DNA of 64,000 bases, taken from assembly GCA_035534715.1 (NCBI GenBank), contig DATLRJ010000020.1, positions 6 to 64,005 of the forward strand. The letters are read 5' to 3'. Made by a program: the position numbers and the translations under genes. This stretch comes from Acidimicrobiales bacterium. Its GTDB lineage: Bacteria > Actinomycetota > Acidimicrobiia > Acidimicrobiales > Bog-793. Position 1 is the first letter of the stretch, and each line of letters begins with the position of its first letter. Shown piece by piece: positions 9,026 through 52,860 of the stretch. The notes under the pieces are model-generated. The model saw only the letters and a list, made by a program, of their open reading frames with translations. It was not told the DNA's origin and made no database searches.

Positions 9026-9124
9026 CTCGAGCCAACCGCTCCACGCAGTCGCGCCGACTACCGGCGCGCTGCGCTGCGCTGCGGACCGATCGTAACGTGA
9101 AGGATTTCGAGATATCGTCGACCT

Positions 9125-10066: not shown

Positions 10067-10156
10067 GCGCGTTCGGCCGCACGGACGCGACCTACGGGCG
10101 ACGCGACCCGAGCCCTGCCGGGCTCCCGTCCGGTTGCGTCCGCGCCGCGGCCCGCC

Positions 10157-10771: not shown

Positions 10772-10817
10772 CGCTCGCCCGGGCTCGTGCGCGTGCGCAC
10801 GCCCGGCGAGCCGCGCG

Positions 10818-11507: not shown

Positions 11508-11724
11508 GTGCACGGTCGTGTCGTCGCAGTGGATCGAGAACGCGGCTGGAGGGGCGCCATGCGACCTGCAGTCGGCGCTCGGCATGGCCGGTCGTCCCTC
11601 TGTCCGTGATCGGACGCCCACCCGGGCTGCGGCGGTAACAGAGCGGCGGAGGTCCGTCTCCGCGCTGATAACAGTCTACGGGGCCGGCGGCCCGATCGGC
11701 GCGCGCGGCCTCCGTGGGCGCCGC

Positions 11725-18853: not shown

Positions 18854-19558
18854 GTGCGGATGGGCGACGAGTTGAGAGACGGCGACTCTCAGGACGACCT
18901 GCTCCGCCGGCTCGTCGACCCTCGCTTCCTCGACGGGTACTCGATGCTCGAGACCGCACGGCGCGCGGGCGTCGAGCGAGCCGCGTCCGCTGCCGTCGCC
19001 GGGTCGAGGAAGGAGCGCGCGAACCGGCGGAGGAGCGTGTCGCGCACGCGCAAGGCTGCGCCGGAGGCGGAGCCCGAGACTGTCGCTGCGCCGGAGGCGG
19101 AGCCCGAGACTGTCGCCGCGCCGGGGGCGGAGCCCGAGACTGTCGCCGCGCCGGGGGCGGAGCCCGAGACTGTCGCTGCGCCGGGGGCGGAGCCCGAGGC
19201 TGTCGCTGCGCCGGGGGCGGAGCCCGAGGCTGTCGCTGCGCCGGGGGCGGAGCCCGAGGCTGTCGCTGCGCCGGAGGCGGTTCGACGACGCACACCGCGG
19301 GCCGCGCCGACGCGCGACAAACGTCTCCCGTTGCGGCGCGACCGCCGGGACGAGATCGTGGACCAGCTCCAGGCCGGCCCGGCGTCCGCGCAGGATCTCG
19401 CGGATCGCTTCGGAATCAGTCGCGAGGGCGTGCTCCGCTGGCTGCGGATGCTTGAGGCGGACGGCGTGATCGCGTCGACCGCGTCGTCGCGCACGAGCCG
19501 GAACAACCGCTGGGTCCTCGCCGCGCCGGAACCGGACGCCGGCGGTGGTGGTGACTGA
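18854..19558 (+). CDS. Decapeptide-repeat protein with C-terminal winged-helix DNA-binding domain
   Basis: C-terminus DEIVDQLQAGPASAQDLADRFGISREGVLRWLRMLEADGVIAS (ArsR/MarR-like wHTH). Central AAP[EG]AEPE[TA]V x7. The 3' end overlaps the GT2 start by 14 nt. Confidence 0.7.
   Translation: MRMGDELRDGDSQDDLLRRLVDPRFLDGYSMLETARRAGVERAASAAVAGSRKERANRRRSVSRTRKAAPEAEPETVAAPEAEPETVAAPGAEPETVAAPGAEPETVAAPGAEPEAVAAPGAEPEAVAAPGAEPEAVAAPEAVRRRTPRAAPTRDKRLPLRRDRRDEIVDQLQAGPASAQDLADRFGISREGVLRWLRMLEADGVIASTASSRTSRNNRWVLAAPEPDAGGGGD
19055..19278. repeat. 30-bp in-frame tandem repeat, about 7.5 copies
   Basis: Unit gctgcgccggaggcggagcccgagactgtc. Variants occur in blocks: 2 copies E/T, 2 copies G/T, 3 copies G/A, then a partial unit. 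Confidence 0.95.
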
Positions 19559-20510
19559 CGCGCTCCCGGCTGCGCCTGCAGCGGTCACCGTCGCAATCCC
19601 CGTGCTCGACGGGGAGCAGCAGATCGACGGGTGCCTCGCGGCGGTCGAAGCGCAGACCTACGCCGGGCCGATCGAGATCCTCGTCGTGGACGGAGGCTCG
19701 CGCGACCGGACCCGCGAGCTCGCGACTCGCCACGCCGGCGTGAGAGTCGTCGAGAACCACCGCCGGAGTCGGCCCGCCGCGATGAACGTCGCACTGCGCG
19801 AAGCGCATGGCGAGATCGTCGTGCGCGTCGACGTCCGGACGTCGCTCGCGCCGGACTACGTCGAGCGAAGCGTGCGCGCGCTCGACCGCTCGGGCGCGAC
19901 GATCGTGGGCGGTCCGATGCGCCTCGCCGCGTCGAGCGCGCGCGAGCGCGGCGTGCGGGCCGCGATGACCTCGCGCCTCGGCGGTGGCCCCGCCGCATTC
20001 CGGCGCGACGCGGGCAGGGCGCGATTCGTCGACACCGTCTACCTGGGCGCGTTCCGCCGCGACGAGATCGTCTCGCTCGGCGGCTACGACGAGAACTTCG
20101 GCGGCAACGAGGACGCCGAGCTCGCGCACCGTGCGCAGTCGGCCGGCGGCGTCTACCTCGACCCCGCGATCCGCTCGACGTATGCGGTGCGGGGAGGACC
20201 GCGTGAGCTCGCCGCGCAGTACTTCCGCTATGGGCGGGCGCGCGCGGGCACGGTCGCGAAGCACCCGTCCTCGCTCTCGCCCCGGCAGCTCGCGGTGCCG
20301 GCGCTCCTGCTCGGGATCGCGAGTCCCTGGCGCCGCCCGGTGCTCGTGACGTACGCCGCCGCAGTCATCTCGCGCACCGCGCTCGAGGTGGCACGCGACC
20401 CGTCGGCCGCGCCGTGGCTCGCGGTCGCGCTTCCGACGATGCACGTCGCGTGGGGTGCGGGCTTCGTCCGGGGACTTGCACGAGCGTGCTCGCGCGCGCT
20501 CCGCCGCTGA
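19545..20510 (+). CDS. Glycosyltransferase family 2
   Basis: VTVAIPVLDGEQQIDGCLAAVEAQTY and ILVVDGGSRDRT. DxD-like EDAE. Confidence 0.85.
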   Translation: MVVTDALPAAPAAVTVAIPVLDGEQQIDGCLAAVEAQTYAGPIEILVVDGGSRDRTRELATRHAGVRVVENHRRSRPAAMNVALREAHGEIVVRVDVRTSLAPDYVERSVRALDRSGATIVGGPMRLAASSARERGVRAAMTSRLGGGPAAFRRDAGRARFVDTVYLGAFRRDEIVSLGGYDENFGGNEDAELAHRAQSAGGVYLDPAIRSTYAVRGGPRELAAQYFRYGRARAGTVAKHPSSLSPRQLAVPALLLGIASPWRRPVLVTYAAAVISRTALEVARDPSAAPWLAVALPTMHVAWGAGFVRGLARACSRALRR

Positions 20511-20519
20511 CGTCGGTCC

Positions 20520-21581
20520 TCAGCTGCTCCCCGCCACGAGGCTCGCGACGTAGCGCGCGAACTCGTCGTGGTCCTCGTGAACGCGCCGCCGCGCCTCGGC
20601 CGCGATCGGCTCGCGCACCGCGGGAGCGGCGATGGACGCGAGCAACTCACGCCACGCCGCGACCGGAGCGGCGGGGTCGAGGAGGAAACCGCTCACGCCG
20701 TCGCTGACCTGCTCGGCGAGTCCGCCGACGCGCGACGCCAGCACCACGGACCCGAGGGCCTGTGCGAGCACGACGGCGCCGCTCTGCGAGGCGCGACTGT
20801 ACGGGAGCACGGTCGCCTGCGACGCAGCGACCGTCGCCGCGAGCTCTGCGCCACCCACGAACCGGTCGACGAGCGCAGCGCCGGAACCGGCGGCGGCGCG
20901 GCTCGCCCCGCGCCCGACCACGGCGAAGCGCCACGGAGGAAGGGGAGTCGCGGTGACGGCGGCGAAGATGCTCGTCCCCTTGTACTCGCGGTGCAGATGG
21001 CCGAAGTGAAGCGCTAGCGGTCCGCCACCCGAGGGGACGAGCGGCGAGGCTCCGCCCGCACCGGCGAGCAGGCCGACAGCAAGTGGGAGCGGCACACGCA
21101 CGATGTCGGTGCGCCCCGACAGCGCCGCAACGCGCCCGCCGACGTAGTCGGAGTGGACGACGACGACGTCGACCTCCCGGAGCAAGTTCGCGAGCGCGCG
21201 GGGGCCGCCCGCTCGAGCGCGGCGCGCCTCGGACTCGTGGGCGACGAGCACGACCGGCACGCCGGAACGGTGCGCAGCGCGCACGACGGCGCGCTCCACA
21301 TCGGGCACCGCGAAGTTCTGCACGACGACGAGCTCGGGCGCGAGCCGGCTGATCGAGCGCGCGACGCGCGCGACGAGTTCGAGATGGGCCACGGCGGCGC
21401 CGGCCCTGCCCGTGCGCACCGCGATCGCGGGGGACACCTCCGCTGCGAGCTCTCGCGAGTCACGTGTCGCAAGGGCGACATCCGCGCCGGACGCGCGCAG
21501 CGAGTCGACCCATGCTCGCGAGCAGTGGGCGATCCCGCCACGACCGAGCCAGTCGACCAGCAGGACGCGCCGACCGCTCAT
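20520..21581 (-). CDS. Glycosyltransferase family 4 (GT-B)
   Basis: Start MSGRRVLLVDWLGRGGIAH. C-terminal SQSGAVVLAQALGSVVLASRVGGLAEQVSDGVSGFL (E-x7-E-like region). ATGA overlap with the upstream GT2. Confidence 0.8.
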   Translation of the reverse strand: MSGRRVLLVDWLGRGGIAHCSRAWVDSLRASGADVALATRDSRELAAEVSPAIAVRTGRAGAAVAHLELVARVARSISRLAPELVVVQNFAVPDVERAVVRAAHRSGVPVVLVAHESEARRARAGGPRALANLLREVDVVVVHSDYVGGRVAALSGRTDIVRVPLPLAVGLLAGAGGASPLVPSGGGPLALHFGHLHREYKGTSIFAAVTATPLPPWRFAVVGRGASRAAAGSGAALVDRFVGGAELAATVAASQATVLPYSRASQSGAVVLAQALGSVVLASRVGGLAEQVSDGVSGFLLDPAAPVAAWRELLASIAAPAVREPIAAEARRRVHEDHDEFARYVASLVAGSS

Positions 21582-22525
21582 CGGACCTCGCGCCACGCCC
21601 GCAGCGCTGCCGAGAGCCCCGCACGGCGCGCGTTCAGCAGCTCGTGACCGCGGACGCGCGCGTGGCCTCGACCAAACGCTCGATGAAGCGCTGCGACCGC
21701 GACAAGCCGCGCGTGCCAGGCGACGACGATGGGCCAGCCGAGCGCCGCCGTGCGTGAACCGTAGAGGGCGCGCAGGCAGCGGACTGCGTTTCGCGCGAGC
21801 AACGCCTGCTTCGCGCCGGAGATCACCGCGCGCCCACCGAGGTGCGTGACCACGATCTCCGGTCGGTACTCGACGGGCACCTCGCGGCGCGCGAGTCGCA
21901 CGAACCACTCGGATTCCTCGAAGTACATCCCGTAGCGCTCGGGGAGCGGCTCCTCGCGCAGCAGCCACGCGGGAACGGCGACCATCACGGCCGACGCTGC
22001 CTCGATCCGTTCGGGCGCAGAAGGCGTGCGCCACTTCTCGACCCTGACGCGGCCAGCGAGAACACGCGGCGGAGCATCGGGCAGAAGCAGCCACTCGACG
22101 ACGAGCGAGCGCAGGTTCAGCGTCGCCTGGACGGTGCGCACCGGGCGCCCGCCGCGGTCGTTCACCCGTGGGACCGCGACGCCACCCGACTCCGCGCTAC
22201 GCCGCGCGAGCGCCACGACCGCGTCCGCGGAGCACGAGAGGTCGTCGTTCGCGAACACGACGACGTCGCTCCCTGCGACCGCCGCGCCGGCGTTCACCGC
22301 AGACGCGTACCCTGGGTTCCCCTCGATCGTGACCAGTCGTGCGCCTGCGCGGCGCGCGACGTCCGCGACGGCTTCGTCGGCCTCGACGTCGACGACCACG
22401 AGCGAGACGCGCGGATCGGCAGTCGAGGCGAGCAACCGGGCGAGCTCCAGCGGCCGGTGGAACGCGACGACGACGAGCGTCGCTTGCGGCCTCACCTCGC
22501 CGCGCGGCGATACGGGGCCCGTCAC
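21578..22525 (-). CDS. Glycosyltransferase family 2
   Basis: ATLVVVAFHRPLELARLL, GNPGYASAVNAGA and VVFANDD motifs. Confidence 0.8.
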   Translation of the reverse strand: MTGPVSPRGEVRPQATLVVVAFHRPLELARLLASTADPRVSLVVVDVEADEAVADVARRAGARLVTIEGNPGYASAVNAGAAVAGSDVVVFANDDLSCSADAVVALARRSAESGGVAVPRVNDRGGRPVRTVQATLNLRSLVVEWLLLPDAPPRVLAGRVRVEKWRTPSAPERIEAASAVMVAVPAWLLREEPLPERYGMYFEESEWFVRLARREVPVEYRPEIVVTHLGGRAVISGAKQALLARNAVRCLRALYGSRTAALGWPIVVAWHARLVAVAALHRAFGRGHARVRGHELLNARRAGLSAALRAWREVR

Positions 22526-24045
22526 TTCGAGCCGTGGTGGGCCGTGGGCACGAGATGTCGCGCGACCGAGACGAGCAACGCGTACGCGCCGACGAGCGCT
22601 CCCGCCTCGAGCACCGCGACAGGTCCGTGACTCACGCGCAACCCGAGAAACTCATCGCCGACCCCGTACACGGCCGCAAGCCCGGCAGCGACCAGCAGCG
22701 CGGTCGCGGACCGCGCGAAGGAGGGCACGTACCCAGCCGCGACGCGGAACTCGCGGAAGCGAATCGCCAGCAGAGCGAGCTCGCTCACGACGAGCACGAC
22801 AGCCGCACCGGTGATTCCCGCGATGGGCACTGCGATGAGATTGCCGGCGAGGTTCAGCAACAGCGCGGCGTACACGCCGCGAGGCACCCGCCGTTCGGCA
22901 CCGACGAGTACGAGGCCGTGCCCGTACACGGCCGTGGGGAAGCCGAGCGCCGCCGCGCTTACGAGGAGCACGAGCGGCACCGTCGCACCCGAGTAGCCCG
23001 CGCCCGCAACCGCGCTCACGACGACATGAGCGAAGAGCGCTGCACCGACTGGGAGGACCGCCGCGACCGTCACGAGCGTGTCGAACGAGCGCTGGAGGAG
23101 AACCCTCCTCTCCGCGTCGTCCTTGCGCATGAAGTGCGGCGTGACCGCGGATAGGAGCATCGCCGGGACGGCTGCCGCGAAGCCGGCGATCTGGCTGGCG
23201 ACCCCGAAGGCAGCCAGCGCACCCGACGACGCGAGCAGCGCGACGACGACGGTGTCGACCTGGCCGTAGAGGGCATTGGCTCCGTAGGTGAGCCCGATCG
23301 GCGCGGCGCGGCGGACGAGCCCGCCCACTTGGCGAGCTGAGCCTCGTAGCCGCGGGACGACGTACATCCGGGCGAGCGCCACGGACGCAGCTGCGGTCAC
23401 GCCCATCGCGACGGCGATGAACATGACGTACCGCGTCGCCCCGCCGTGAGTGAAACGGACCAAGAGCACCGCGCCGAGAACGAGCACGCTGCTCCCGATG
23501 TCGAGCACCGCCCGCACGTCGTTGCGCGCCCTCGCGACGAACACCGAGCTGCTCATCAGCCAGAGCGCGGTGAACGGGACGGTGGGGAGCAGGACGTACG
23601 CGAGCACCCGTACCTCTGGGTGGCTCGAGTAGACGACGAGGACGACGAGTGCCGCGACCGCGGTGGCCGCACCGGCCGTGACCGGGGTCGCCGCGAGCGC
23701 GGCACCGTAGAGCGAGCGCGCGTCTGCCCCGCGCGACGCGAGGTCGCGGCTCGCGATCTGTTGGACCCCGAAGTCGCTCACGGAGGCGAAGACGCCGATG
23801 AGCGCGGTGGCAGCGACAATCGGACCCCAGCGATCCGGTGTGAAGTAGTGGGTGCCGACGTGCAGTGCGACGAGCGCTACGAGCCCGCCGGCCGCGCGCC
23901 CACCCAGCCGGACGAGCGCGTTGTAGGAGATCCGACCGCGGAACCCGGGGCTCGAGACCGACCGCTCCGGCGACCCTTCGGGCCGAGCCGCCGCCGGTCG
24001 TGCGGCCGCCCGCAGGCCTGCCCGCGGGCGGGCGCGACGCAGCAT
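22522..24045 (-). CDS. Wzx-like oligosaccharide/polysaccharide flippase (MOP superfamily)
   Basis: About 12-14 TM segments typical of polysaccharide-biosynthesis flippases. Start placed at ATG 24045 to avoid a 5' overlap with the divergent GT4. The ORF extends to 24147. Confidence 0.8.
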   Translation of the reverse strand: MLRRARPRAGLRAAARPAAARPEGSPERSVSSPGFRGRISYNALVRLGGRAAGGLVALVALHVGTHYFTPDRWGPIVAATALIGVFASVSDFGVQQIASRDLASRGADARSLYGAALAATPVTAGAATAVAALVVLVVYSSHPEVRVLAYVLLPTVPFTALWLMSSSVFVARARNDVRAVLDIGSSVLVLGAVLLVRFTHGGATRYVMFIAVAMGVTAAASVALARMYVVPRLRGSARQVGGLVRRAAPIGLTYGANALYGQVDTVVVALLASSGALAAFGVASQIAGFAAAVPAMLLSAVTPHFMRKDDAERRVLLQRSFDTLVTVAAVLPVGAALFAHVVVSAVAGAGYSGATVPLVLLVSAAALGFPTAVYGHGLVLVGAERRVPRGVYAALLLNLAGNLIAVPIAGITGAAVVLVVSELALLAIRFREFRVAAGYVPSFARSATALLVAAGLAAVYGVGDEFLGLRVSHGPVAVLEAGALVGAYALLVSVARHLVPTAHHGSK

Positions 24046-24121
24046 CGAGCTCACGACTCGACTAACGGCCGCGAGCGCTCGCGGTCGAAGGGCCGCGAGC
24101 ACGACCGCGTAAGGTTTCGCC

Positions 24122-25216
24122 GTGGACCGACGGACGCTCCGCGTCACCTATGTGCTGCCGAAGCTCGTTGATCACCCGGTCGGAGGCTTCAAGGTCCACT
24201 ATCAGTACGCGAACGAGCTCGCGGCTCGGGGCCACCAAGTCACCGTCGTACACCCGGCGACGACAGGTTTCGTGCCGTCGGCGCGCGAGCTCGCTTCGTT
24301 CGGCGCCGCCGCGCTCCGCCGCAGGCTGCGCGGCGGCGGAGCGGTGCCCTGGTTCGCTCTCGACGAGCGCGTCGGCTCGTCGAACGTCGTGCGTCTTCGC
24401 CCGGCATCGCTGCCCGACGGCGACGTGCTCCTGCTCACCGCGTGGCAGACCGCCGAGCGCACCATCGGCGCGCCGCCGCGCGTCGGCCGCAGCGTCCAGA
24501 TCGTCTTCGACTACGAGCACTGGCTCGAGTCGCCCGCACTGCGCCCGCGAATCGCGCGAGCGCTTGGGCGTCCCGACGTGACGCGCATCGCGACCTCGGC
24601 GGGAGTCGCCTCGCTCCTCGAGGAGCTCGGTGCTCACGCCGTCGCGACCGTCACACCCGGGCTCGCGGCTGGGGAGTTCGGACTCGACGCGCCCGTCGCG
24701 CCGCGCCGGCCCGTGGTCACCTTCGCGTTGCGCCATGGGCCCTCGAAGGACATGGCGACCGCGTTCGCCGCGGTCGCGCAGATCCGTCAGGCCGTCCCTG
24801 ACGCCGAAATCCGCTGCTTCGGAGACCCGCGCCAGGCGGCACCCGCCACCGTCCGGCACCTCGGCCGGCTCGAGCAGCGAGCGCTGCGCCGCTGCTACAA
24901 CGAGACCGCCGTGTTCCTGCTCACGAGCCGCCACGAGGGGTGGGGTCTTCCCGCGGCGGAGGCGATGGCATGCGGAGCGGCTGTCGTGTCCACAAGAAAC
25001 GGGGGAACCGAGGAATTCGTGCGCGACGGCGCCAACGGCGTGCTCGTACCGGCCGCCGATCCGGGCGCGGTCGCGGCCGCCGCAGTGCGTCTCCTCGGGG
25101 ACGAGGACCTGCGCGCCTCGCTCGGGGCCAGAGCCGCTAGCGAGGCGCTCCAGATGACCGTCGAACGAGCGACCGACCGCGTCGAGGAGGTGCTGCGCCG
25201 TGTCGCTCACCGGTAG
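24122..25216 (+). CDS. Glycosyltransferase family 4 (GT-B)
   Basis: EGWGLPAAEAMACGAAVVSTRNGGTEEFVRDGANGVLV. Confidence 0.85.
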   Translation: MDRRTLRVTYVLPKLVDHPVGGFKVHYQYANELAARGHQVTVVHPATTGFVPSARELASFGAAALRRRLRGGGAVPWFALDERVGSSNVVRLRPASLPDGDVLLLTAWQTAERTIGAPPRVGRSVQIVFDYEHWLESPALRPRIARALGRPDVTRIATSAGVASLLEELGAHAVATVTPGLAAGEFGLDAPVAPRRPVVTFALRHGPSKDMATAFAAVAQIRQAVPDAEIRCFGDPRQAAPATVRHLGRLEQRALRRCYNETAVFLLTSRHEGWGLPAAEAMACGAAVVSTRNGGTEEFVRDGANGVLVPAADPGAVAAAAVRLLGDEDLRASLGARAASEALQMTVERATDRVEEVLRRVAHR

Positions 25217-25232
25217 TCGCGCCTCTTCGCAC

Positions 25233-26570
25233 CTAGCGACCTGTGCGCCCGACGATCGAGCGAAGGGTCCGCCCGACGATGCGCGCGTCGAGCATGAGGC
25301 TCTGATGACGTAGATAGTAGAACTCGTACTGCAGCTTCTCGAGCGCGTCGAAGCCGCTCGCTCCGTAGTCGAAGTTCACCTGCGCCCAGCCGGTGATCCC
25401 CGGCTGCACGAGGTGGCGAAGGTCGTAGTAGTCGATCTTGCGGGCGAGCTCCGCGACATAGCGCGGCTGCTCGGGACGGGGGCCGACGATCGACAGCTCC
25501 CGGCGGAGCACGTTCACCACCTGCGGCAGCTCGTCGACGTGCGACTTGCGCATGACGCGGCCGACTCGACCGACGCGGCGGTCGTCCACGCTCGTCCACG
25601 TGGACTCCCCGCCGGAAGGGGGCATCGTCCGGAACTTGAGGATCGTGAAGATCCTGCCGTCCTTGCCGACGCGCTCCTGCCGGTAGAGAAGCGGCCCACG
25701 GTTGCCCGCGAGGTCCGCGACGAGCACCGCGAGCGTCGCGAGCGCGAGCAGCGGGAGCGCGATCAGCGCGACCAGCACGTCGATCGCACGCTTCGAGCGC
25801 GCGTACGCCGCGTTGTGGATCTCGTGGATGTCGAACAGCAGCGCGGAGCGCTCGAGCTCGGACAGCGGGAGCTTGCCGAGCCATTGGTCGTAGAAGAGCG
25901 CGAGCGTGCGGACCTTGCAGCCGCGCCGGTGGAGCTCCGCGGCCTGGACGACGATGTCCTCGTCCGCGATCGCCTCGCGGTCGAGCACGACGAGCGTCGC
26001 CTGGTGCGCGTCGACGAGCTCCGCGAGCGGCCGCGGCCGTTGCGCGCTCGACCGCACGTCGGCCGCGAGCGCGGTCGCCGCGAGCACCGCAGGGCGCTCC
26101 CGGGCACCCTTCAGGTCGGCCGCGAGCGCGAGCGCCTCGGCGACGCCGACGATCGCGAGGACACGCTCGGCCGCGTCGCGGCGCGCGCTCCCGCCGGACA
26201 TCGTCCGGGCGGCCACGGCGACGGCCGGCGTGAGGAGCGCGACCGCGAGGAAGACGACGAAGCGCGGCAGCAGCGCCTGGCCCACGACGAGCGCCATGAC
26301 CGACACGGCGCCGGCGGCGACGAGCGTCGCGGCGAACGAGCGGACGAGTGCCTCGGAGAATCGCGGAGCGGACTCGGGCAGGCCAGCCGCGTAGAACGCG
26401 ACGAGCAGGAGCGCGGTGAACACCACGAGCCATCCGAACCGGGGGAACGCCGTGAAGCGGTAGTGGCCCACGAGGTGCGCGTGAACCTCGCCGAGCGCGG
26501 CGACGACGGCTACCGTCAGGCCCGATATGAGCCACCGCGCAGACCTGGACACCGCGCCCAATTCAAGCAC
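25233..26570 (-). CDS. Priming polyprenyl-phosphate glycosyl-phosphotransferase (WbaP/EpsL-type sugar transferase)
   Basis: KRAIDVLVALIALPLL, LYRQERVGKDGRIFTILKFRTM, DELPQ and GPRP motifs. Start uncertain (ORF open to 26687, GTG 26570 chosen). Confidence 0.85.
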   Translation of the reverse strand: MLELGAVSRSARWLISGLTVAVVAALGEVHAHLVGHYRFTAFPRFGWLVVFTALLLVAFYAAGLPESAPRFSEALVRSFAATLVAAGAVSVMALVVGQALLPRFVVFLAVALLTPAVAVAARTMSGGSARRDAAERVLAIVGVAEALALAADLKGARERPAVLAATALAADVRSSAQRPRPLAELVDAHQATLVVLDREAIADEDIVVQAAELHRRGCKVRTLALFYDQWLGKLPLSELERSALLFDIHEIHNAAYARSKRAIDVLVALIALPLLALATLAVLVADLAGNRGPLLYRQERVGKDGRIFTILKFRTMPPSGGESTWTSVDDRRVGRVGRVMRKSHVDELPQVVNVLRRELSIVGPRPEQPRYVAELARKIDYYDLRHLVQPGITGWAQVNFDYGASGFDALEKLQYEFYYLRHQSLMLDARIVGRTLRSIVGRTGR

Positions 26571-26610
26571 CGGGCGCGCGGCGACCTCGCGATTCGGCGC
26601 TCCCTCCTGG

Positions 26611-28314
26611 TTGGAGGGCGCGACGACGCTAGACGTCGTCGCGGCTCTTCTCGCGTTCCTACTAGCAGTGGCGATCTCGCCGGTCACGAACTCCTACACC
26701 TTCACGCCGAAGCTCGCGGTCGTGCTGGTCCTTGCGGCGATCGGGCTTCCTCGGCTCGCCCGCCTCGCCGCCGGGGGCGATCGCGCTGCGTGGGCGGCGC
26801 TCTCGTTCCTCGCGATCGGGCTCGCGTCCGCAGCGATCTCGGGCAGCGTCCTCGTGGGGCTCTTCGGGATGTACCTGTCAGGGACGGGTTGGGTCTTCTG
26901 GTGCGGCGTCGTCGGTGCGTGGGCGATCGGTCGCTCGCTCGGCCCTCGCGGCGCCGACCTCGCCACGGCGGGTCTCGTCGCTGGGGCGCTCGTGAACGCC
27001 GTGGTGACCGTGGCGCAGCAGGCGTTCCAGCTCGCGAGCCCCGTCCTCGGCCTGTACCAGGGCACCCAGGCCGACGGGCTCATGGGCAACCCGATATTCC
27101 TCGAGAGCGTGCTCCTCGGCGCGCTCGCGATCGTCCTCGTGCGCGCGTGCACCGTGCGCTGGCAGTGGTCGCTCGCAGCCGTCGTGATCTCCGCGTCGCT
27201 CGAGCTGAGCGGCGAGCGCTTCGCGATCGCGCTCCTCGCCGTGCTCGTCGTGTGGGCGGTCGCGGTCCACCGCAACCGTCGGAGCCTGCTGTTCGCCGCG
27301 GCGGTCGCGTTCGGCTACGGGGTCACCTACGCGTTCTCGAGCGCGCTCATCCACGCACGCATCGCCCGGAACGTCGCGTCGAACCCGCGGCTCACGCTGT
27401 GGAAGGCGCTCGCCCACGCGTTCGCGCACCGCCCGGTCCTCGGCTGGGGTCCAGGCCAGACGCTCCAGGCCACGACCGCGTTCCAACCGCTCGCCCTCGC
27501 GAAGCGGCTCGCGGTCGCCACGTACTTCAACGACGCGCACGACATACTCGTGGAGGTCGCCGTGACCACGGGCGTGCTCGGCCTCGTCGCGTTCGTCGCC
27601 TTCGCCGGCCAGGCGATGCGCTCCGCGTCCGGACCACTGCTCGGCGCGGCGCTCATGATGCTCGCGGTCGAGCTCGTCGAGCCGCTGAACGTCGGCGTCA
27701 CGCCGCTCGCCTTCCTCGCGCTCGGTGCGGCCACAGCGAGGACGGGCCGGACCGGACCGGGAGAGGCCCGCACGGCGCGCGGCCGCGCGCGCCTGGTCGG
27801 AGCCGCGACCGCGGTGCTGGTCGCCGCCGCCGTCGGGGCGTCCGCCACGATGCTCTACGGCGACTACGAGCTGAACTCCGGGCTACTCGCCTACCGGTAC
27901 CCGACTGCGGTGCGCGGCGCCCACGTCCTCGCCGTCTGGTCCGACCCCGCGCTCGTCGTCGCAGAGATCGCGGTGAACCGTTCGATCGCGTTCCGCGACC
28001 GGCGGCACTGGCTCCTGCTCGCGCGCCACTGGCACGCGGTCGCAGCCGCCCGCGAGCCCACGAACACCCAGCTCTGGACCGCGCTCGCCGGCGCCGACGC
28101 GGAGCTCGGGAGGCTTCGCGCCGCGTCGTCCGAGTACGAGAATGCGCTCCGCCTCGACCGTTTCGACACCGAAGCACTCGTCGGCCTCGCGTCGATCGAC
28201 ATCCGCGAGGGACGCGCTCGCGAGGCCGTCGCGCTGCTGCACCGCGCGCTCGCGACCGCGCCCGGCTACGCGCCCGCGATCGCCGGGCTCCGCAAGGCGA
28301 GCGCAGCGGGCTGA
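26611..28314 (+). CDS. Wzy_C / O-antigen-ligase-family membrane protein with C-terminal TPR repeats
   Basis: Multi-TM region with the hallmark AHDILVEVAVTTGVLG (AHN-x-L-x4-E-x-G-x2-G type). C-terminal ALRLDRFDTEALVGLASIDIREGRAREAVALLHRALATAPGY TPRs. Start uncertain (ORF from 26527). Confidence 0.8.
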   Translation: MEGATTLDVVAALLAFLLAVAISPVTNSYTFTPKLAVVLVLAAIGLPRLARLAAGGDRAAWAALSFLAIGLASAAISGSVLVGLFGMYLSGTGWVFWCGVVGAWAIGRSLGPRGADLATAGLVAGALVNAVVTVAQQAFQLASPVLGLYQGTQADGLMGNPIFLESVLLGALAIVLVRACTVRWQWSLAAVVISASLELSGERFAIALLAVLVVWAVAVHRNRRSLLFAAAVAFGYGVTYAFSSALIHARIARNVASNPRLTLWKALAHAFAHRPVLGWGPGQTLQATTAFQPLALAKRLAVATYFNDAHDILVEVAVTTGVLGLVAFVAFAGQAMRSASGPLLGAALMMLAVELVEPLNVGVTPLAFLALGAATARTGRTGPGEARTARGRARLVGAATAVLVAAAVGASATMLYGDYELNSGLLAYRYPTAVRGAHVLAVWSDPALVVAEIAVNRSIAFRDRRHWLLLARHWHAVAAAREPTNTQLWTALAGADAELGRLRAASSEYENALRLDRFDTEALVGLASIDIREGRAREAVALLHRALATAPGYAPAIAGLRKASAAG

Positions 28315-28339
28315 GCGCAGACCGGCTCGGGCGCGCAAG

Positions 28340-28370
28340 CGCCCCGGCCAGGTGACCCGTGGCCGGGGCG
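28340..28370. terminator. Bidirectional hairpin between convergent Wzy_C-TPR gene and pilA
   Basis: cgccccggcca (28340-50) pairs perfectly with tggccggggcg (28360-70), with a 9-nt loop. Confidence 0.6.
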
Positions 28371-28412
28371 CTCGAAGCTCGCGGACCAGACGGCGCGCGA
28401 GGCCCGGTCAGA

Positions 28413-28994
28413 TCAGGCCGGGAAGCCGCCCGTGTTCGTCCACGCGCCCGGCTTGCCCGCGGTCGTGCTCACTCCTGCTTTCGCCCCCGCCGCCGTGCAG
28501 GCCGCGCTGGTCGTGGCCGGGTACCAGCCGTAGTAGGTGTCCGTGCCCGTGTAGCCCGTGATTCCGAGGCCCCCCGTGCTCTTCTGGTCGGCGATCGCGT
28601 AGCAACGGTTGCTGCCGTTCCACGCGGCGAGGAACAGGTCGCTCGAGTCGACGACGTCGACGCTGATGACCTTGTTGCCCGTGGACGCAGCATTGCTCAC
28701 GTACGTGAGGCCAGTCCCCTCCTTCGAGATGTCGGACACCGACGTCGAGCCGATCAGGGACGTGTAGGTCCCGTTGTTCTGCGTGTAGTAGGTGTCCGCA
28801 CCGGTGAGCGCGGTCTGCAGGTTCGACGTCACCGCCGTGTTCGTCGCGCTCTTCGTCACCGTCAGGAACGTGGGGATCGCGATCGCCAGCAGGATGCCGA
28901 GGATCAACAGGACGACGAGGAGCTCGATGAGCGTGAATCCCTCATCGGCGCCCTCGGACATCTGCGAGAGATGCCGCTTGAGATGGGTTCGCAA
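28413..28994 (-). CDS. pilA: Type IV major pilin (prepilin with class III signal peptide)
   Basis: Leader ...GADEG then FTLIELLVVLLILGILLAIAIP with Glu5. AAGGAGG 5 nt before TTG 28994. S/T/G-rich C-terminal half. Confidence 0.85.
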   Translation of the reverse strand: MRTHLKRHLSQMSEGADEGFTLIELLVVLLILGILLAIAIPTFLTVTKSATNTAVTSNLQTALTGADTYYTQNNGTYTSLIGSTSVSDISKEGTGLTYVSNAASTGNKVISVDVVDSSDLFLAAWNGSNRCYAIADQKSTGGLGITGYTGTDTYYGWYPATTSAACTAAGAKAGVSTTAGKPGAWTNTGGFPA

Positions 28995-29190: not shown

Positions 29191-31581
29191 CTAGCCCACC
29201 GCCGGGCACGCGGGCGTCGTTTGGGTCGCGATGTTCGCGTCGCCGCACACGACGTAGCCGAGGTCCTGCCACGAGGTCACCGCCGACTGCAACGCGTACG
29301 GGGGCTGGAGGAACTGGAGCCGGCTGTCGAAGCTGAACTGCTTGTCGTAGCCCCAGGTCTCGCCGTAGCCCGAGATGAGACCGAACGGTCCTCGGTACTG
29401 GCTGATGTCCGCGCCGTTCAGGTGGACGCCGTTGCTCGAGTACGTCCCGTTGCCCTGGTCCCAGTACTCGACGCCGAACGCGCCGTTCAGCGAGATCACC
29501 GCGGCGTCGATGACCGGGTTCGCGATGTCGCAGTTCGGCCAGACGGCAGCCGGCTCGCCGATCGACGACCCGCTCGTCGGGTCACCGGACGTGCCACCGG
29601 ACAACGTCCCCGCGGTCGCGGCCGTCCCGTCGTAGGCGCACGTCGAGAGTCCGTTGCCCGTCGAGCCGAGGAGGCCCGTCATCTGCGAGACGGAGTACGG
29701 CGGCGACTTCACGGGGTGCGACACGAGCACGTTGTCGAACGCCTCGAGCCCGAGGATGTCCGGCGACGACCCGGTGGTGCACGCGGCGACGGACGACGGG
29801 TTGGCAGCGGATGCGGGCCCGTTCGTCCCGTCGGCACAGGCATAGGTGAGGTCACGCGTGACGATGATGTTCGCAGCAGACCCGACCGTGAGCTCGCCGC
29901 TCAGCTCGCCCTCGATGTAGGTGTCCCCCTCGAGGCAGGTCGCGGAGGTCTTCGTAACCGTCGGGAGTATCGGGTTGTTGGCCTGCGTCAGGTTCACGTA
30001 CGGGTTGATGCAGCCGGATCCGGTGCTGTTCAGCCCGTCCTGGACCGTCGGAGCGGTGCTCGCGGCGCCCGCGTTCTGCACGAAGACGACTCCGTTGGCC
30101 GGGAGCGGTACGCCGATGATGTAGGGGCCCGAGCTGCCGGAGAAGCTCTGGCCGAACGAGGTGAGCGAGGCGCCCGTCGGGCTCTTCCCCGTGCTGCAGG
30201 CGGCCGACGGGGCGTTCGCGCCGGTCGAGAGCGGGCTCCACACGTTCATCGTCGTGCCCGAGCTCGACGTGACGAGCGCGATCATCGTCGGCCCGGTGAA
30301 CAGGCATCCACCCGAAGCCGCAGCGGTCGCGAGCTGCGTGTTCCAGCTGGGGAGCACGAGGTTGCCGTTCAAGCTCGATCCGTGCACGAAGTTCGGGGTG
30401 TTCGGCTGACCGCAGAAGTTCTGGACCGGGTCGACCGTCGTGCCGCTCGGCGAGTAGTACGTCGTCCCACCCGACCGCACCGGCACGGAGCCGAGCCAGT
30501 CGTACGCGTACGCGGTGCTCGACGACACCCCGGACGTGTACGAGATCGGCGCGCCCGAGAACGTCGGCGACGCACAGACGTGGAGCTGGTCGTTCGAGTA
30601 CACGGGTCCGGCGAAGCTCTCACCGGTGTTGAAGTCGAACGTGCCGCCACACGCCTCCGCGGGCACCGTTACCGTCGCGCCGTTGCCGTTCGTGAAGCTG
30701 AACCGCTGGGCGCCGTAGAAGGGCCCGTAGTACGGGTTGCTCGGCGTGTACGACTTGTAGACGTCCCGGTACGGGCTGCCCACGGTCTCCGCGCCCACGC
30801 TCACGTTCTGCGTCTGGCCGAGCCAGTCGAGGAAGTCGTTTGCCTGGTACGTCTTGTAGTCGCACAACGCGTTCCACAGCGACGTCGTCGTGCTCACGCC
30901 GTTCACGGGGTACGTCACCTGGTAGGTCGTGATCCCCTGCGAAGCGCTCAGGCCGGTCACGGTCACGCCCGTCTGCTGCACGTCCGGGTAGAGCGGGTCG
31001 AGCACCTCGGTGTTCGAGAAGTACGCGTTCGCGAGGATGGAGCTCGTCGTGAAGCTCGCGCGCGCGGTCACGTAGACGTAGCTCCCGGGCGAGCCGCCGC
31101 GACCGGTCACGGTGAGCACGACGCGCCCTGCGTTCGTGCCCGACGTCGCGAACAGGGTCGAGTCGTCTGGCACGTAGTGGAAGGCCTCACCCGGGCTCGT
31201 GCCGCCGAGGTCGCACGCGGACGAGCACCACCCGCCCGTCTGCATCGCGGGGTCCGCGGGCGTCGACGGGTTCGACGCGCTGTAGAGGTAGTAGTTCGGG
31301 TCCGCGTCGAGGTGGTTCCGATACCACTCGATGCCCGACTCTGCCGCGGCGAGCGCGGCGTGCTTGTTGGTCGAGAGCACGACGAGCGGTGCGTCGCTCG
31401 TGATCTGCGACGCCATGAGCGGGCCGAGCACCGAGAGCAGGACCACGAGGATCACGATGATCACGATGATCTGGCCCGAGTCGTCCCGGCCGTGGCGCGT
31501 CGCGTCGACCCGCTCGCGGAGCGCGTGCGCGACGCGATGCCGCGCCCCCGGTCGGCTCCCCGGAGCTCGTAGGGCCGTCAT
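29191..31581 (-). CDS. Large PilX-like pilus assembly/tip protein (796 aa)
   Basis: N-terminal GQIIVIIVILVVLLSVLG hydrophobic helix without a G|F-x-x-x-E cleavage motif (PilX_N-like). Long S/T/G/N-rich extracellular region. ATGA overlap with the upstream gene. Confidence 0.65.
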   Translation of the reverse strand: MTALRAPGSRPGARHRVAHALRERVDATRHGRDDSGQIIVIIVILVVLLSVLGPLMASQITSDAPLVVLSTNKHAALAAAESGIEWYRNHLDADPNYYLYSASNPSTPADPAMQTGGWCSSACDLGGTSPGEAFHYVPDDSTLFATSGTNAGRVVLTVTGRGGSPGSYVYVTARASFTTSSILANAYFSNTEVLDPLYPDVQQTGVTVTGLSASQGITTYQVTYPVNGVSTTTSLWNALCDYKTYQANDFLDWLGQTQNVSVGAETVGSPYRDVYKSYTPSNPYYGPFYGAQRFSFTNGNGATVTVPAEACGGTFDFNTGESFAGPVYSNDQLHVCASPTFSGAPISYTSGVSSSTAYAYDWLGSVPVRSGGTTYYSPSGTTVDPVQNFCGQPNTPNFVHGSSLNGNLVLPSWNTQLATAAASGGCLFTGPTMIALVTSSSGTTMNVWSPLSTGANAPSAACSTGKSPTGASLTSFGQSFSGSSGPYIIGVPLPANGVVFVQNAGAASTAPTVQDGLNSTGSGCINPYVNLTQANNPILPTVTKTSATCLEGDTYIEGELSGELTVGSAANIIVTRDLTYACADGTNGPASAANPSSVAACTTGSSPDILGLEAFDNVLVSHPVKSPPYSVSQMTGLLGSTGNGLSTCAYDGTAATAGTLSGGTSGDPTSGSSIGEPAAVWPNCDIANPVIDAAVISLNGAFGVEYWDQGNGTYSSNGVHLNGADISQYRGPFGLISGYGETWGYDKQFSFDSRLQFLQPPYALQSAVTSWQDLGYVVCGDANIATQTTPACPAVG

Positions 31582-32639
31582 GACGCGTACACCGCAGTCC
31601 CCGCCGAGGTCGACGCGCTGTAGCTCGTCGCGGCCGGCGGGCTCGCGACGCCCGAGTACGTCGCGGTGACCGTGTACGTCGCGCGCGAGGCCGCGTAGAA
31701 CGAGCACGACGCCTGCCCGGTCGTCGAGAGCGACGTCGCGCTCGCGCAGGTGTTGGAGATCGTCGAGCTCCCCCGGGTCACGACCGCGGTCACCGAGCCG
31801 CCGTCGGGGACGGGCGAGACCGTGACGGTGAACGCGACCGTCGTGCCGTACGTCGGCGCGGTGTTGGGGAAGCTCACGACCGTCGCGGTCGTCGGCGCGG
31901 GGGCGTTCGCGTTCTGCAGGTACACGGTCGTCTGGAACGTCGTCGGCTGGATCGCCTGGAAGCCCTGGAGGGGCTTCTGCGGGCCGGCGAGGAAGGTGAC
32001 GTCGACGCCGACGGCGACCACGTTGCCGAGCGCGGCGCATGGATCGTAGGTGCCGACGAGCTCCTGTCCGGTCGCGTCGGGCGGGTTGGTCGTCGTCGTC
32101 GGAGTCGAGGAGCCGCACGACGGCTCGGTCGCGCCCACGCTCGCGTAGTAGTAGTAGGTGAACGGGTCGGCGGTGTTCACGACGTAATAGGTTCCGACCG
32201 GGTGCGGCGTGCCGCCCTGCGGTGTGATCGACACGACGAACGACGCGTCGGCGTTCGATCCGCTCGGCGGGACGAGCTGGGCCTCGAGCGTCGCGATGTC
32301 CTGCGTGGAGGTCGTGGTGTTGTACCCGGCCTCGACCGACGCGATGAGCGTCGTCGGCGTCGAGCCCGGGAGCACGGTCACCGCGCCGTGCAGGTACTCG
32401 AGCAGCGCGTTGCCGGCCGTCTGGTCCTGCTTCAGGCCGAGCATCGTGTCGTGGAGGTCGACGCTCTGCTGGCTCAGGTTGCCGATGAGGCCGTAGATGA
32501 CCGGCACGATGATCGCGAGGACCGCCATCGCGACGAGCATCTCGATGAACGTGAAGCCCGCGTCCCCCCGGCCCGCGGCCCGGGTGCGGGTGCGGGTGCG
32601 CGCGAACAGCGGTTCCGGAGGTGACCGACGCCGGCTCAT
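31578..32639 (-). CDS. Minor pilin-like protein with C-terminal Ig-like (Big_3-type) module (353 aa)
   Basis: GDAG then FTFIEMLVAMAVLAIIV prepilin motif. C-terminal YGTTVAFTVTVSP...TYTVTATYSG pattern. ATGA overlaps on both sides. Confidence 0.75.
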   Translation of the reverse strand: MSRRRSPPEPLFARTRTRTRAAGRGDAGFTFIEMLVAMAVLAIIVPVIYGLIGNLSQQSVDLHDTMLGLKQDQTAGNALLEYLHGAVTVLPGSTPTTLIASVEAGYNTTTSTQDIATLEAQLVPPSGSNADASFVVSITPQGGTPHPVGTYYVVNTADPFTYYYYASVGATEPSCGSSTPTTTTNPPDATGQELVGTYDPCAALGNVVAVGVDVTFLAGPQKPLQGFQAIQPTTFQTTVYLQNANAPAPTTATVVSFPNTAPTYGTTVAFTVTVSPVPDGGSVTAVVTRGSSTISNTCASATSLSTTGQASCSFYAASRATYTVTATYSGVASPPAATSYSASTSAGTAVYAS

Positions 32640-34237
32640 CCGACGGTCACCGAGATCTGCGAGGTCGTCGGCGACGAGCACACCGAGGAGCCGGGCGAGA
32701 GAGGCGAGGTCGAGGCGCACACGCCCGTCGGCGTCACCCACATGTACGCCTGGCCACCCGAGAACGTCACGGACGGGTTCGACCCGGTCACCGTCGCGCC
32801 GAGCTGGAACTCCCCGAGCGGCAGGCTCGTGAGGCTCGCACCCGTCCCGCCCGGGTAGTTGAGCGTGATCGTGTGCCCGCCCGAGTCCTTCGCGAAGAGC
32901 CCGGTCACCGAGCCCGCGTCGCTCTTCACCGTGAGCTTCAACGAGAGCGGGTACACGGGAAGCGTCACCGAGCCCGCGGCCGCCGCCGAGGCCGTGAGTC
33001 GGGTCGTCACCCCGCTCGTGCCGTAGTACGTGGCCGTCGGGTCGGCGTCGGTCGTCCCACCCGCGTACGCCGTGTAGTTCGCCCCGGCCGACGGGAACGG
33101 GAAGAGGAGCGCGGTCTGCGCCGAGCTCGCGCCGGTCGCGAACGCGCTCGTCGCGTTGCCGAGCACGCAGAGGCCCGCGCTGCCGCACGCCCCCGGGCTC
33201 ACGAAGGTCACCGGGAGAAACGGCGCAGGTGCCGCGGTCTTGTCCACGGTGTCGGAGAAGTTCACCGTGATGGGTGCTCCCTCGTCGAGCACGATCTGGC
33301 CGGTCGGCTGCGTGACGCTGTCGGCGGTGATCGCCATCGGCGCGAGCGTCGGCACCCCGCCCGCGGTCGCCGCGTCCGAGAGCTCGTTCGGGTCGACCCA
33401 GCCCGCGTTGCCCGACACCGTCACGGTGTACAGCCACCCGGTCGCCGCCCACAGGTTCGGGAAGACCGCGCAGCCGGTCGATCCCGTGTTCTCGGTCTCG
33501 GTGGTCACCGGCAGTGGCGTCCCCGACGGCTGGGCGCACGAGGAGAGCGAGCACGTTCCCGTCACGGTCACCGAGATGGGCGTCGCGGTCTCGAGCGTCG
33601 TCGGGAGCGCCGCCGGCGAACCGGGCGACGTGGTCGTCGTCGTCGTCGCCATGCTCGAGGCGGTCGTCGTGTACACGGGGACCGCGATCTCCCCGGCGCT
33701 CACGTTCGCGAGGTCGGCCTGGGCGGGCGAGATGAGCGCGCGCTCGATCACCGAGTTGCCGGCACTCGCGGACGCGCCCCAGCTCACCGTCGCGGACGCG
33801 CGCCACACCTCCGTCGAGGTCGCCCCGGGCGGCGCGGTGCACAGCGTCCCGACGCCCGACTGCGGCAGGACGGCGAGGTCGAGCGAGACCGTGAACTGGT
33901 CGCTTCCGGACATCGCCGTCGTGGTCGTCACACCGGTCGTGAGCGGCGAGCCCGCCGCGGCCTGGTACTGCGCGGTCTCGAGCGCCTGGGTCGCGAGGTC
34001 GACGGCCTCGGCGCGACGGTGAAGCGTGTTCGCGGAGCTGTGCGTCGTGATGAGGACCACGGTGAGGGGGAGCACGACGAGCGCGAGGACGAGCAGCGCG
34101 ACGAGCACCTCGACGAGCGAGAAACCCTCGTCGAGACGCGCGGCTCGGCTCTCGCGCGCCGCGCTCGCGTGGCGCCGCGCGGTGGCGGCGCGAGCGACTC
34201 GCGGGACTCGTTCCTCCGGGTGACGCGCGCACCTCAT
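32636..34237 (-). CDS. Large minor pilin-like protein (533 aa)
   Basis: LDEG then FSLVEVLVALLVLALVV prepilin motif after a 36-aa leader. Long T/S/A/G-rich region with paired Cys. Confidence 0.75.
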   Translation of the reverse strand: MRCARHPEERVPRVARAATARRHASAARESRAARLDEGFSLVEVLVALLVLALVVLPLTVVLITTHSSANTLHRRAEAVDLATQALETAQYQAAAGSPLTTGVTTTTAMSGSDQFTVSLDLAVLPQSGVGTLCTAPPGATSTEVWRASATVSWGASASAGNSVIERALISPAQADLANVSAGEIAVPVYTTTASSMATTTTTTSPGSPAALPTTLETATPISVTVTGTCSLSSCAQPSGTPLPVTTETENTGSTGCAVFPNLWAATGWLYTVTVSGNAGWVDPNELSDAATAGGVPTLAPMAITADSVTQPTGQIVLDEGAPITVNFSDTVDKTAAPAPFLPVTFVSPGACGSAGLCVLGNATSAFATGASSAQTALLFPFPSAGANYTAYAGGTTDADPTATYYGTSGVTTRLTASAAAAGSVTLPVYPLSLKLTVKSDAGSVTGLFAKDSGGHTITLNYPGGTGASLTSLPLGEFQLGATVTGSNPSVTFSGGQAYMWVTPTGVCASTSPLSPGSSVCSSPTTSQISVTVG

Positions 34238-36551: not shown

Positions 36552-36604
36552 GTCGACCGCCCTCCTTGGTGCCCATCGTCACGCATCACTGGACCCCTCT
36601 CTCC

Positions 36605-39630: not shown

Positions 39631-39673
39631 GCGACCACCTTGTCCGCTACTCCCACGTACGTCGCGGTCCGGG

Positions 39674-44280: not shown

Positions 44281-44313
44281 CGATCGCCCTCCTCGGGCGC
44301 TGCTAACGGACGG

Positions 44314-52859: not shown

Positions 52860-52860
52860 C

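Follow-up and report, generated by a model that had tools for sequence, protein, structure and literature searches.

In a 64,000-nucleotide stretch of DNA from an uncultured Acidimicrobiales bacterium (the window), a cluster of glycan-assembly genes ends beside pilA, the gene for the major type IV pilin. The last gene of the cluster encodes a protein with a Wzy_C domain and a C-terminal tetratricopeptide repeat (TPR) domain, here called Wzy_C-TPR. We read this locus, with moderate confidence, as a self-contained pathway for en bloc O-glycosylation of type IV pili in a monoderm member of the Acidimicrobiia; in this pathway Wzy_C-TPR, to judge from its sequence, is probably the pilin O-oligosaccharyltransferase (O-OTase). 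A preliminary description of this DNA had put forward pilin O-glycosylation as a candidate function, and three independent lines now support it: linkage to pilus genes, cassette-like behavior of the locus, and a WaaL-like enzyme architecture.

The locus encodes everything that a complete minimal pathway needs: one priming transferase, four glycosyltransferases, one flippase, and a single Wzy_C enzyme. Genes were called by third-position GC and then checked with Pfam; the raw list of open reading frames (ORFs) in this DNA (window G+C ~73%) was full of spurious frames. The locus reads as follows.

19545-20510, plus strand: GT2a, a family-2 glycosyltransferase (Pfam Glycos_transf_2, E 1e-18)
20520-21593, minus strand: GT4a, a family-4 (GT1-fold) glycosyltransferase (Pfam Glyco_trans_1_4; Glyco_transf_4 slightly under its cut-off)
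21578-22525, minus strand: GT2b, a family-2 glycosyltransferase (Pfam Glycos_transf_2)
22522-24147, minus strand: Wzx-type flippase (Polysacc_synt, Pfam PF01943, E 1.6e-9)
24122-25216, plus strand: GT4b, a family-4 glycosyltransferase (Pfam Glyco_trans_1_4 and Glycos_transf_1, E 1e-22 to 1e-24)
25233-26504, minus strand: priming polyprenyl-phosphate glycosyl-1-phosphate transferase (Pfam Bac_transf, E 8e-53)
26527-28314, plus strand: Wzy_C-TPR, 595 amino acids, candidate O-OTase (Pfam Wzy_C and TPR_19)
28338-28371, no strand: perfect 12-bp GC-rich inverted repeat, GCGCCCCGGCCA-(9 nt)-TGGCCGGGGCGC
28413-28994, minus strand: pilA, major type IV pilin, mature protein of ~174 amino acids (Pfam N_methyl, NCBIfam IV_pilin_GFxxxE; motif GFTLIELLVV)

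The priming transferase, four glycosyltransferases, and Wzx-type flippase that had been placed at 19545-28994 are thus borne out by Pfam, and the gene coordinates first given hold as well, except that the priming transferase most likely starts not at 26687 but at 26504, the position to which residue 1 of its ortholog aligns. Only 22 bp then separate this start from that of the divergent Wzy_C-TPR gene. The start of GT4a is likewise placed at an internal 'MSGRRVLLVD' rather than at the start of its 524-residue ORF. Because the Pfam matches of the locus genes lie far over their cut-offs and the locus recurs in many relatives, chance is of no concern for the gene content.

As had been described, the Wzy_C protein carries a C-terminal TPR domain: Wzy_C spans residues 216-357 (E 1.5e-15, 57.7 bits against a gathering cut-off of 31.7) and includes the motif AHDILVEVAVTTGVLG at residues 337-352, and TPR_19 spans residues 526-589. 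Three relatives (L006, L007, and L027) likewise exceed the Pfam Wzy_C gathering score, while NCBIfam gives TPR-based matches only, all sub-threshold. A profile search of the PDB with the full-length alignment was dominated by TPR proteins and was repeated with the membrane part alone, for which the sole sequence match was the WaaL ligase of C. metallidurans (7TPG, E 1e-10). R231, R288, and H338 do not vary among 34 family members and align with the undecaprenyl-pyrophosphate-binding and catalytic residues R191, R265, and H313 of that enzyme. The functionally important residues shared by ligases and O-OTases are R215/R288/H338 in E. coli WaaL and R224/R298/H349 in N. meningitidis PglL (PMC3643930), which R231/R288/H338 appear to match by position in the Wzy_C motif rather than by direct alignment. 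AlphaFold2 (AF2) models had a predicted local distance difference test score (pLDDT) of 88-89 and a predicted template modeling score (pTM) of 0.89, and a Foldseek search of the PDB returned a single significant membrane-protein match, again WaaL (7tpg_B, E 3e-5, TM-score 0.45-0.53), together with TPR proteins such as OGT and PEX5 for the C-terminal part. No O-OTase or Wzy polymerase structure was among the significant Foldseek matches, so the fold search does not tell a ligase from a polymerase.

Wzy_C-TPR has 13 hydrophobic, predicted transmembrane (TM) helices with a clean positive-inside pattern. The loop at residues 271-339, which holds R278, R288, and H338, is predicted to face outward, and the Arg-rich loop at 403-420 before TM13 to face inward. 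Because this inside loop precedes TM13, the TPR domain (~residues 444-595, ~150 amino acids) is predicted to be extracytoplasmic, on the same side as the active site, and we propose that it holds the protein acceptor.

The main evidence, linkage to pilus genes, comes from comparing genomes. Some 60 related loci were gathered from protein look-ups and from scans of genomes and of metagenomes, and pilin motifs and homologs of window proteins were mapped on them; ~48 non-redundant loci had enough flanking sequence to be assessed. The family is small (45 matches in a word-indexed protein search, with more members found through a profile of a distant group), and among public sequences the locus is most closely matched by a contig of 94% identity (L008) from an Acidimicrobiaceae metagenome-assembled genome (MAG). 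Of the ~48 assessable loci, 32 have an ORF with a pilin motif no more than 1.6 kb away from Wzy_C-TPR, and four further ones have PilM/PilO within 6 kb. Pilin adjacency spans 95% down to 30% identity and several gene orders, with the two genes convergent, the pilin co-directional and downstream, or Wzy_C-TPR directly 3' of the pilin in pilB-pilC-pilin operons.

Loci of class 1 (37-95% identity) have the priming transferase, the divergent Wzy_C-TPR gene, and then a pilin 0.1-1.6 kb downstream, usually followed by a pilM-pilC-ATPase-pilB cluster. The pilin is convergent in close relatives, co-directional at ~40% identity, and duplicated or triplicated in two loci (L020 and L025), and the priming transferase and Wzy_C-TPR are divergent neighbors in ~27 loci. 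A distant subfamily (30-42% identity) is located in pilus clusters where none of the visible neighbors encodes a priming transferase, glycosyltransferase, or flippase: in L006, L047, and L063, Wzy_C-TPR is the last gene of a pilB-pilC-pilin-x-x-pilin-Wzy_C-TPR row, and in L007, L039-L045, and L053 it faces one or two convergent pilin genes and has PilM/PilO upstream. In a neighbor-joining (NJ) tree pilin linkage occurs on both deep branches, while only class 1 links Wzy_C-TPR to the priming transferase, so within the family the association with pilins runs deeper than that with glycan genes. That it runs deeper and also outlasts several rearrangements argues for selection over inherited synteny.

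The possibility that pilA adjacency is inherited synteny without functional meaning appears very remote to us. The close loci do all fall within one order-level lineage (Acidimicrobiales MAGs), and the flanking purF, PHP, and HTH genes are likewise syntenic in close relatives. However, the pilin changes strand, distance, and copy number and yet remains beside Wzy_C-TPR, the surroundings in the distant subfamily are wholly different and still include an adjacent pilin or PilM/PilO, and pilin genes are rare in genomes, so repeated chance adjacency would be very unlikely.

Comparison of close relatives reveals a locus with conserved ends (GT2a on one side; the priming transferase, Wzy_C-TPR, and pilA on the other) around an exchangeable middle. 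Between the window and L001, the closest non-identical relative, Wzy_C-TPR is 70% identical, the priming transferase 88%, GT2a 76%, and PilA 76%, whereas the flippase is 27.6% identical, GT2b is replaced (32%), and GT4a and GT4b are absent from L001. GT2a is the best-conserved glycosyltransferase of the locus, with 59-76% identity in relatives. GT2b has 29-32% identity to its L001 and L004 counterparts, GT4a is missing from L001 and L004 and found in L003 and L005, and GT4b has no ortholog in L001, L003, L004, or L005. The L004 cluster contains four different GT2 genes and no flippase, and the L005 cluster adds dTDP-sugar, aminotransferase, and acetyltransferase genes. This cassette-like exchange points to diversification of pilus glycans among soil and peat Acidimicrobiia.

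In O-antigen and capsule loci, Wzy polymerases are exchangeable and, with Wzx, specific to the repeat unit, whereas ligases and O-OTases are glycan-tolerant and conserved. Wzy_C-TPR shows none of the co-variation with flippase and glycosyltransferases, between the window and L001, that would mark a Wzy polymerase. Where the flippase and inner glycosyltransferases have been exchanged it is still orthologous, which is ligase- or OTase-like and not polymerase-like behavior.

This behavior bears directly on an explanation that we regard as unlikely, namely that Wzy_C-TPR is the Wzy polymerase of a Wzx/Wzy-dependent exopolysaccharide (EPS) or cell-wall glycan functionally coupled to the pilus, for instance as a matrix or retraction anchor. 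EPS serves as a matrix or anchor for pilus retraction in Myxococcus, and a pilus-coupled glycan would account for the Wzy_C-TPR gene travelling with pilus genes. The locus also has the outline of a Wzx/Wzy cluster: the Wzy_C-TPR gene is in the neighborhood of a priming transferase, glycosyltransferases, and Wzx, and its product is the only polytopic polymerase candidate. The best NCBIfam matches of the priming transferase, GT2a, and GT4b are EPS models (EpsZ, EpsD, and EpsE), all weak and far under cut-off; the priming transferase scores 269 bits with EPS_sugtrans, which is also sub-cut-off. TPR domains are known in polysaccharide-export scaffolds too, at least as reference 99 is cited in PMC2943079. 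Against a polymerase, an enzyme specific to its repeat unit would not typically remain orthologous through exchange of the flippase and inner glycosyltransferases, many relatives in the distant subfamily stand alone in pilus operons with glycan-assembly genes not nearby, and the only PDB match, by sequence and by fold, is a ligase. Nor does a co-polymerase lie nearby. The preliminary description had seen no chain-length regulator, tyrosine kinase, export, or LCP-type gene, and indeed the ~46 ORFs scanned across the 64 kb contain no Wzz/PCP, BY-kinase, Wza/OPX, or LCP domain, a few short intergenic gaps being outside the scan; Wzz/PCP, BY-kinase, and LCP were also absent from the called genes of L001 and L003-L007. 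If Wzy_C-TPR were a polymerase after all, this would be an ordinary EPS cluster merely linked to pili.

If Wzy_C-TPR is instead a pilin O-OTase, as we favor, the pilins should offer a suitable acceptor. PilA has two Cys residues followed by a Ser/Thr/Ala/Gly-rich tail and ends in ...TNTGGFPA. In all 24 class-1 pilins the N-terminal half hardly varies, the two Cys are present, and the second Cys is followed by a Ser/Thr/Ala/Gly-rich tail of ~15-30 residues that varies in length and sequence. The end motif [S/T]-G-(G)-F-P-x is conserved; after GFP come A, K, S, or a pair of residues, for example xG or PA. A comparable tail is found on distant-subfamily pilins, several of which have a Trp at or near the C-terminus (...SSW, ...GW, ...AWK). 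The pilins compared are those beside Wzy_C-TPR in the window, L001, L003-L005, L008, L011-L036, and L039-L053. Only one of the 24 class-1 pilins ends in Ser/Thr, so modification of the C-terminal residue, as by TfpO and TfpM, is a poor fit. From the sequences, the acceptor would most likely lie in the hypervariable Ser/Thr/Ala/Gly-rich tail behind the pilin disulfide loop, where an internal site is plausible, and the subfamily-specific C-terminal motif is a possible recognition peptide for the TPR domain.

From the domain assignments, a pathway can be proposed. The Bac_transf enzyme would prime the polyprenyl phosphate carrier, GT2a and the variable GT2/GT4 enzymes would assemble a short oligosaccharide at the cytoplasmic face, and the Polysacc_synt flippase would carry this glycan to the outer face. 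There, Wzy_C-TPR, as a GT-C enzyme of the WaaL/PglL type, would move the glycan from its lipid pyrophosphate carrier onto Ser/Thr residues of the pilin that the adjacent gene encodes, and perhaps onto the Ser/Thr-rich minor pilins as well, while its outward-facing TPR domain would bind the protein acceptor.

Comparison with known systems places this candidate among, but apart from, the characterized enzymes. The substrates of TfpO, TfpM, and PglS are typically encoded beside the enzyme (PMC12645811); in a literature survey, 21 of 31 PglL homologs adjoin pilins. Wzy_C-TPR lacks defining features of both TfpO/TfpM and PglL/PglS. As with TfpO (PilO) of P. aeruginosa 1244 and Acinetobacter and TfpM of Moraxellaceae, the gene lies beside a pilin, the catalytic His is conserved, there is no PglL_A or Wzy_C_2, and the lipid-linked glycan may be made elsewhere in the distant subfamily, which has no adjacent glycan genes. 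Unlike Wzy_C-TPR, TfpO and TfpM have 420-470 amino acids and no large C-terminal domain, and they glycosylate a C-terminal Ser/Thr of the pilin (PMC9829042). Wzy_C-TPR, at 595 amino acids, adds a 13th helix and the TPR domain, resides in a monoderm actinobacterial host, and in the window is encoded convergent to pilA rather than downstream of it.

Closer in size (520-620 amino acids) are PglL of Neisseria and PglS of Acinetobacter baylyi, which share the conserved Arg/Arg/His. PglS has 13 TM helices and an extracytoplasmic C-terminal domain (PMC12800693), as predicted here, and its gene lies beside a pilin-like substrate, comP. The pgl pathway has the same minimal set of priming transferase, glycosyltransferases, flippase, and OTase without a polymerase. 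PglL and PglS acceptors are defined by an internal Ser in a low-complexity Ala/Ser/Pro-rich stretch, and internal sites are plausible in the Ser/Thr/Ala/Gly-rich class-1 tail. Unlike PglL and PglS, Wzy_C-TPR has no PglL_A or Wzy_C_2 flanking Wzy_C (a criterion from PMC12645811 and PMC3643930), its C-terminal domain is a TPR, and phylum and envelope are different; the likeness is judged from descriptions of these enzymes.

Three further enzymes share parts of this architecture. WsfB, the tyrosine O-OTase of the Paenibacillus alvei S-layer, also comes from a monoderm host, is likewise reported to join Wzy_C to a C-terminal TPR, and is encoded in a glycan cluster near the glycosylation genes of its target (PMC2943079), but that target is an S-layer protein, modified on Tyr with a polymeric glycan, whereas the neighbor here is a pilin; this comparison, too, is by description. 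TfpW of P. aeruginosa group IV modifies pilin, is encoded beside pilA (tfpW downstream), and has a periplasmic C-terminal TPR thought to bind protein or sugar, but it is an ArnT/Emb-like GT-C enzyme that uses polyprenyl-phosphate D-arabinofuranose and is not Wzy_C/WaaL-like. WaaL itself belongs to diderms, ligates glycan to lipid A-core, and has no TPR. The 13th helix as an extra relative to WaaL is our own reading, based on TM13 and the TPR domain lying beyond the WaaL-aligned stretch, and PMC12800693 counts 13 helices in WaaL too.

Several observations weigh against pilin glycosylation as the function of Wzy_C-TPR. First, not every member has a pilin beside it. Class 2 (L018, L021, L023, L027, L029, and L032, a single monophyletic clade nested in class 1 in the NJ tree, with L033, left out of the tree, counted in by shared context) has GT2a followed by Wzy_C-TPR and no pilus, pilin, or priming-transferase gene within 10 kb, and in a small deep group (L051, L054, and L064) the Wzy_C gene lies between nusB and pyrR. 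Given these two groups, pilin may be neither the only substrate nor even an obligatory one. Part of the pilin linkage inside Acidimicrobiia could also be inherited synteny. Second, the analogy to TfpO/PilO drawn in the preliminary description is partial: a Wzy_C gene does lie beside the pilin, but the enzyme is larger and carries a TPR domain, and the C-termini of the pilins read ...GFPA or ...GFPxG, with no terminal Ser/Thr in 23 of 24 class-1 pilins or in most others. Third, PglL_A (PF15864) and Wzy_C_2 (PF11846) were absent from four family members when searched with Pfam even at E <= 10. Fourth, the Pfam Wzy_C family takes in O-antigen and EPS polymerases. Finally, high Ser/Thr content, described below for the pilus proteins, is common in secreted proteins and pilins generally, and all carriers are uncultured MAGs, those with a taxon name all belonging to Actinomycetota/Acidimicrobiales.

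The loci without pilins are the principal reason to consider a ligase with a different or broader acceptor, whether a general O-OTase for envelope proteins or an enzyme that joins the glycan to a membrane glycolipid or wall polymer. We think this quite unlikely. In its favor, the class 2 and nusB-[Wzy_C]-pyrR contexts show an enzyme retained apart from pilins, the size and C-terminal domain of Wzy_C-TPR are closer to the general OTases PglL and PglS than to the pilin-specific TfpO and TfpM, and WaaL, the only structural relative in the PDB, has a lipid acceptor. Set against this, a pilin is the immediate neighbor in two thirds of the assessable loci and in several gene orders, and lipid A-core, the classic WaaL acceptor, is not expected in an actinobacterium on taxonomic grounds. 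No lipopolysaccharide (LPS) or LPS-core gene was found among the window ORFs scanned, and on this ground, together with the monoderm envelope inferred from taxonomy, a true WaaL, that is an LPS O-antigen ligase, was rejected.

The two pilin-free groups have features of their own. In the class-2 unit, the GT2a ortholog is 59-62% identical, Wzy_C-TPR occupies ~10001-11800 in most loci and is away from the flippase too, and the flanking genes code for LysR, pirin, fatty-acid hydroxylase, GGDEF-EAL, and MFS proteins. Judging by this two-gene unit, GT2a and the ligase would seem to function as a pair by themselves. The row in the nusB-pyrR group is aroK-aroB-aroQ-pepP-efp-nusB-[Wzy_C]-pyrR-pyrB-pyrC-carA (e.g., 9001-10734 for the Wzy_C gene of L064); in L064, PilM/PilO lie ~5 kb upstream of the Wzy_C gene. 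The protein P0053 of this group has no Pfam TPR match. One further Wzy_C-TPR protein, P0060 (L065), is more distant and was treated as belonging to another family, as its match covers only 19% of the query; its gene is adjoined by a GT4 and a priming transferase, and its context includes a multi-haem cytochrome.

The wzy_C-TPR and pilA genes converge on a 98-bp spacer with, as had been stated, one hairpin between them, formed by the perfect 12-bp stem listed above. The spacer folds at -59 kcal/mol (z = -2.3), and its minimum-free-energy and centroid structures both contain the hairpin. A scan for consensus terminators does not call it, a T-run being missing, and it is likely a bidirectional terminator. 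Beyond pilA lies a complete pilus gene cluster.

~29191-31575, 31578-32630, and 32636-34200, minus strand: three large Ser/Thr-rich minor-pilin-like genes (82-86% identity to L001 genes)
34258-34845, minus strand: pilO (tblastn, 83%)
34842-36578, minus strand: pilM (Pfam PilM_2)
36605-37924, minus strand: pilC (Pfam T2SSF)
37849-39681, minus strand: second PilB-like ATPase (Pfam scan, T2SSE/MshEN among the pilus-gene matches)
39674-42418, minus strand: pilB (Pfam scan, T2SSE/MshEN among the pilus-gene matches)
~42400-43131, plus strand, within ORF 41722-43131: prepilin-peptidase (PilD)-like ORF (motifs found by eye)
43183-44313, minus strand: pilT (Pfam scan)

Of the three large pilin-like proteins that had been described, two have class-III signal motifs (G|FTFIEMLV and G|FSLVEVLV, positions 32558 and 34126), and the third has an N-terminal hydrophobic helix only; a PilV/ComGE-like N-terminus is seen among them. 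The Ser/Thr richness noted for these proteins and PilA holds, at 22-28% Ser+Thr in the four pilus proteins against 8-18% (mostly 8-14%) in 32 other window proteins, but it is weak evidence of glycosylation, as secreted proteins are often alike in this respect. The two PilB-like ATPase genes are in tandem, and the pair is kept in class-1 relatives; the upstream one encodes 914 amino acids, among them a long N-terminal extension and two MshEN domains. The PilD-like ORF sits between pilB and pilT on the opposite strand and contains the motifs CPACG...CRACG, GFGDVRL, and PFGPFLALG.

Directly 5' of GT2a is a gene for a small HTH regulator (18854-19558, plus strand). Inside it, at 19055-19280, is a 30-bp tandem repeat of 7.5 copies with 97% matches, which encodes (A-A-P-G/E-A-E-P-E-T/A-V)n in the N-terminal half of the protein. 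Since the same HTH gene also precedes GT2a in L001 and L003, the regulator may control the glycan cluster, and variation in repeat copy number could serve as a switch. Elsewhere in the window, positions 1-2000 have a G+C of 0.63 against 0.70-0.76 in the remainder, and tRNA and Rfam scans of the entire 64 kb gave zero matches. An IS66-family transposase (DDE_Tnp_IS66) lies at 51320-52723 (minus strand), flanked by unannotated 49283-51320 and 52723-53795, and an ABC sugar-transport permease (BPD_transp_1) at 56552-58057 (plus strand) holds an inserted CarboxypepD_reg/SdrD_B-like beta-sandwich (residues ~281-333), which is unusual in a permease.

To our knowledge, only Pmt-type O-mannosylation is established in Actinomycetota. 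Pilin O-glycosylation by Wzy_C-family OTases is well known in Proteobacteria (TfpO, TfpM, PglL, and PglS), while our literature search found no publication tying a Wzy_C enzyme to type IV pilins in Actinomycetota, and a 2025 review of bacterial O-glycosylation leaves actinobacteria and mycobacteria unmentioned. We tentatively suggest, as a bolder possibility that we hold to be doubtful though worth stating, that the Wzy_C-TPR family is a fifth class of bacterial O-OTase, confined to monoderm Actinomycetota (Acidimicrobiia and relatives), and the first lipid-pyrophosphate-dependent en bloc protein O-glycosylation there. The TPR domains of PEX5 and Hop bind C-terminal peptides. In a fifth class of this kind, the TPR domain would dock the conserved peptide at the pilin C-terminus, which is ...[S/T]-G-F-P-x in one of the subfamilies and contains Trp in the other, and so offer the hypervariable Ser/Thr tail to the WaaL-like active site, while the swappable glycosyltransferase/flippase cassette would vary the glycans on the pilus surface, for example against phages.

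If pilin glycosylation by Wzy_C-TPR is correct, en bloc O-glycosylation, hitherto mainly Gram-negative, would reach the pili of monoderm actinobacteria, and a conserved 'O-antigen ligase family protein' of bacteria that have no LPS would gain a concrete function. New OTase-acceptor pairs are wanted for bioconjugate engineering, and each new class has given new glycan or sequon tolerance (PMC9829042; PMC12800693). The system described here would add one such pair, in which a TPR module serves for recognition and the sequon lies in the C-terminal tail.

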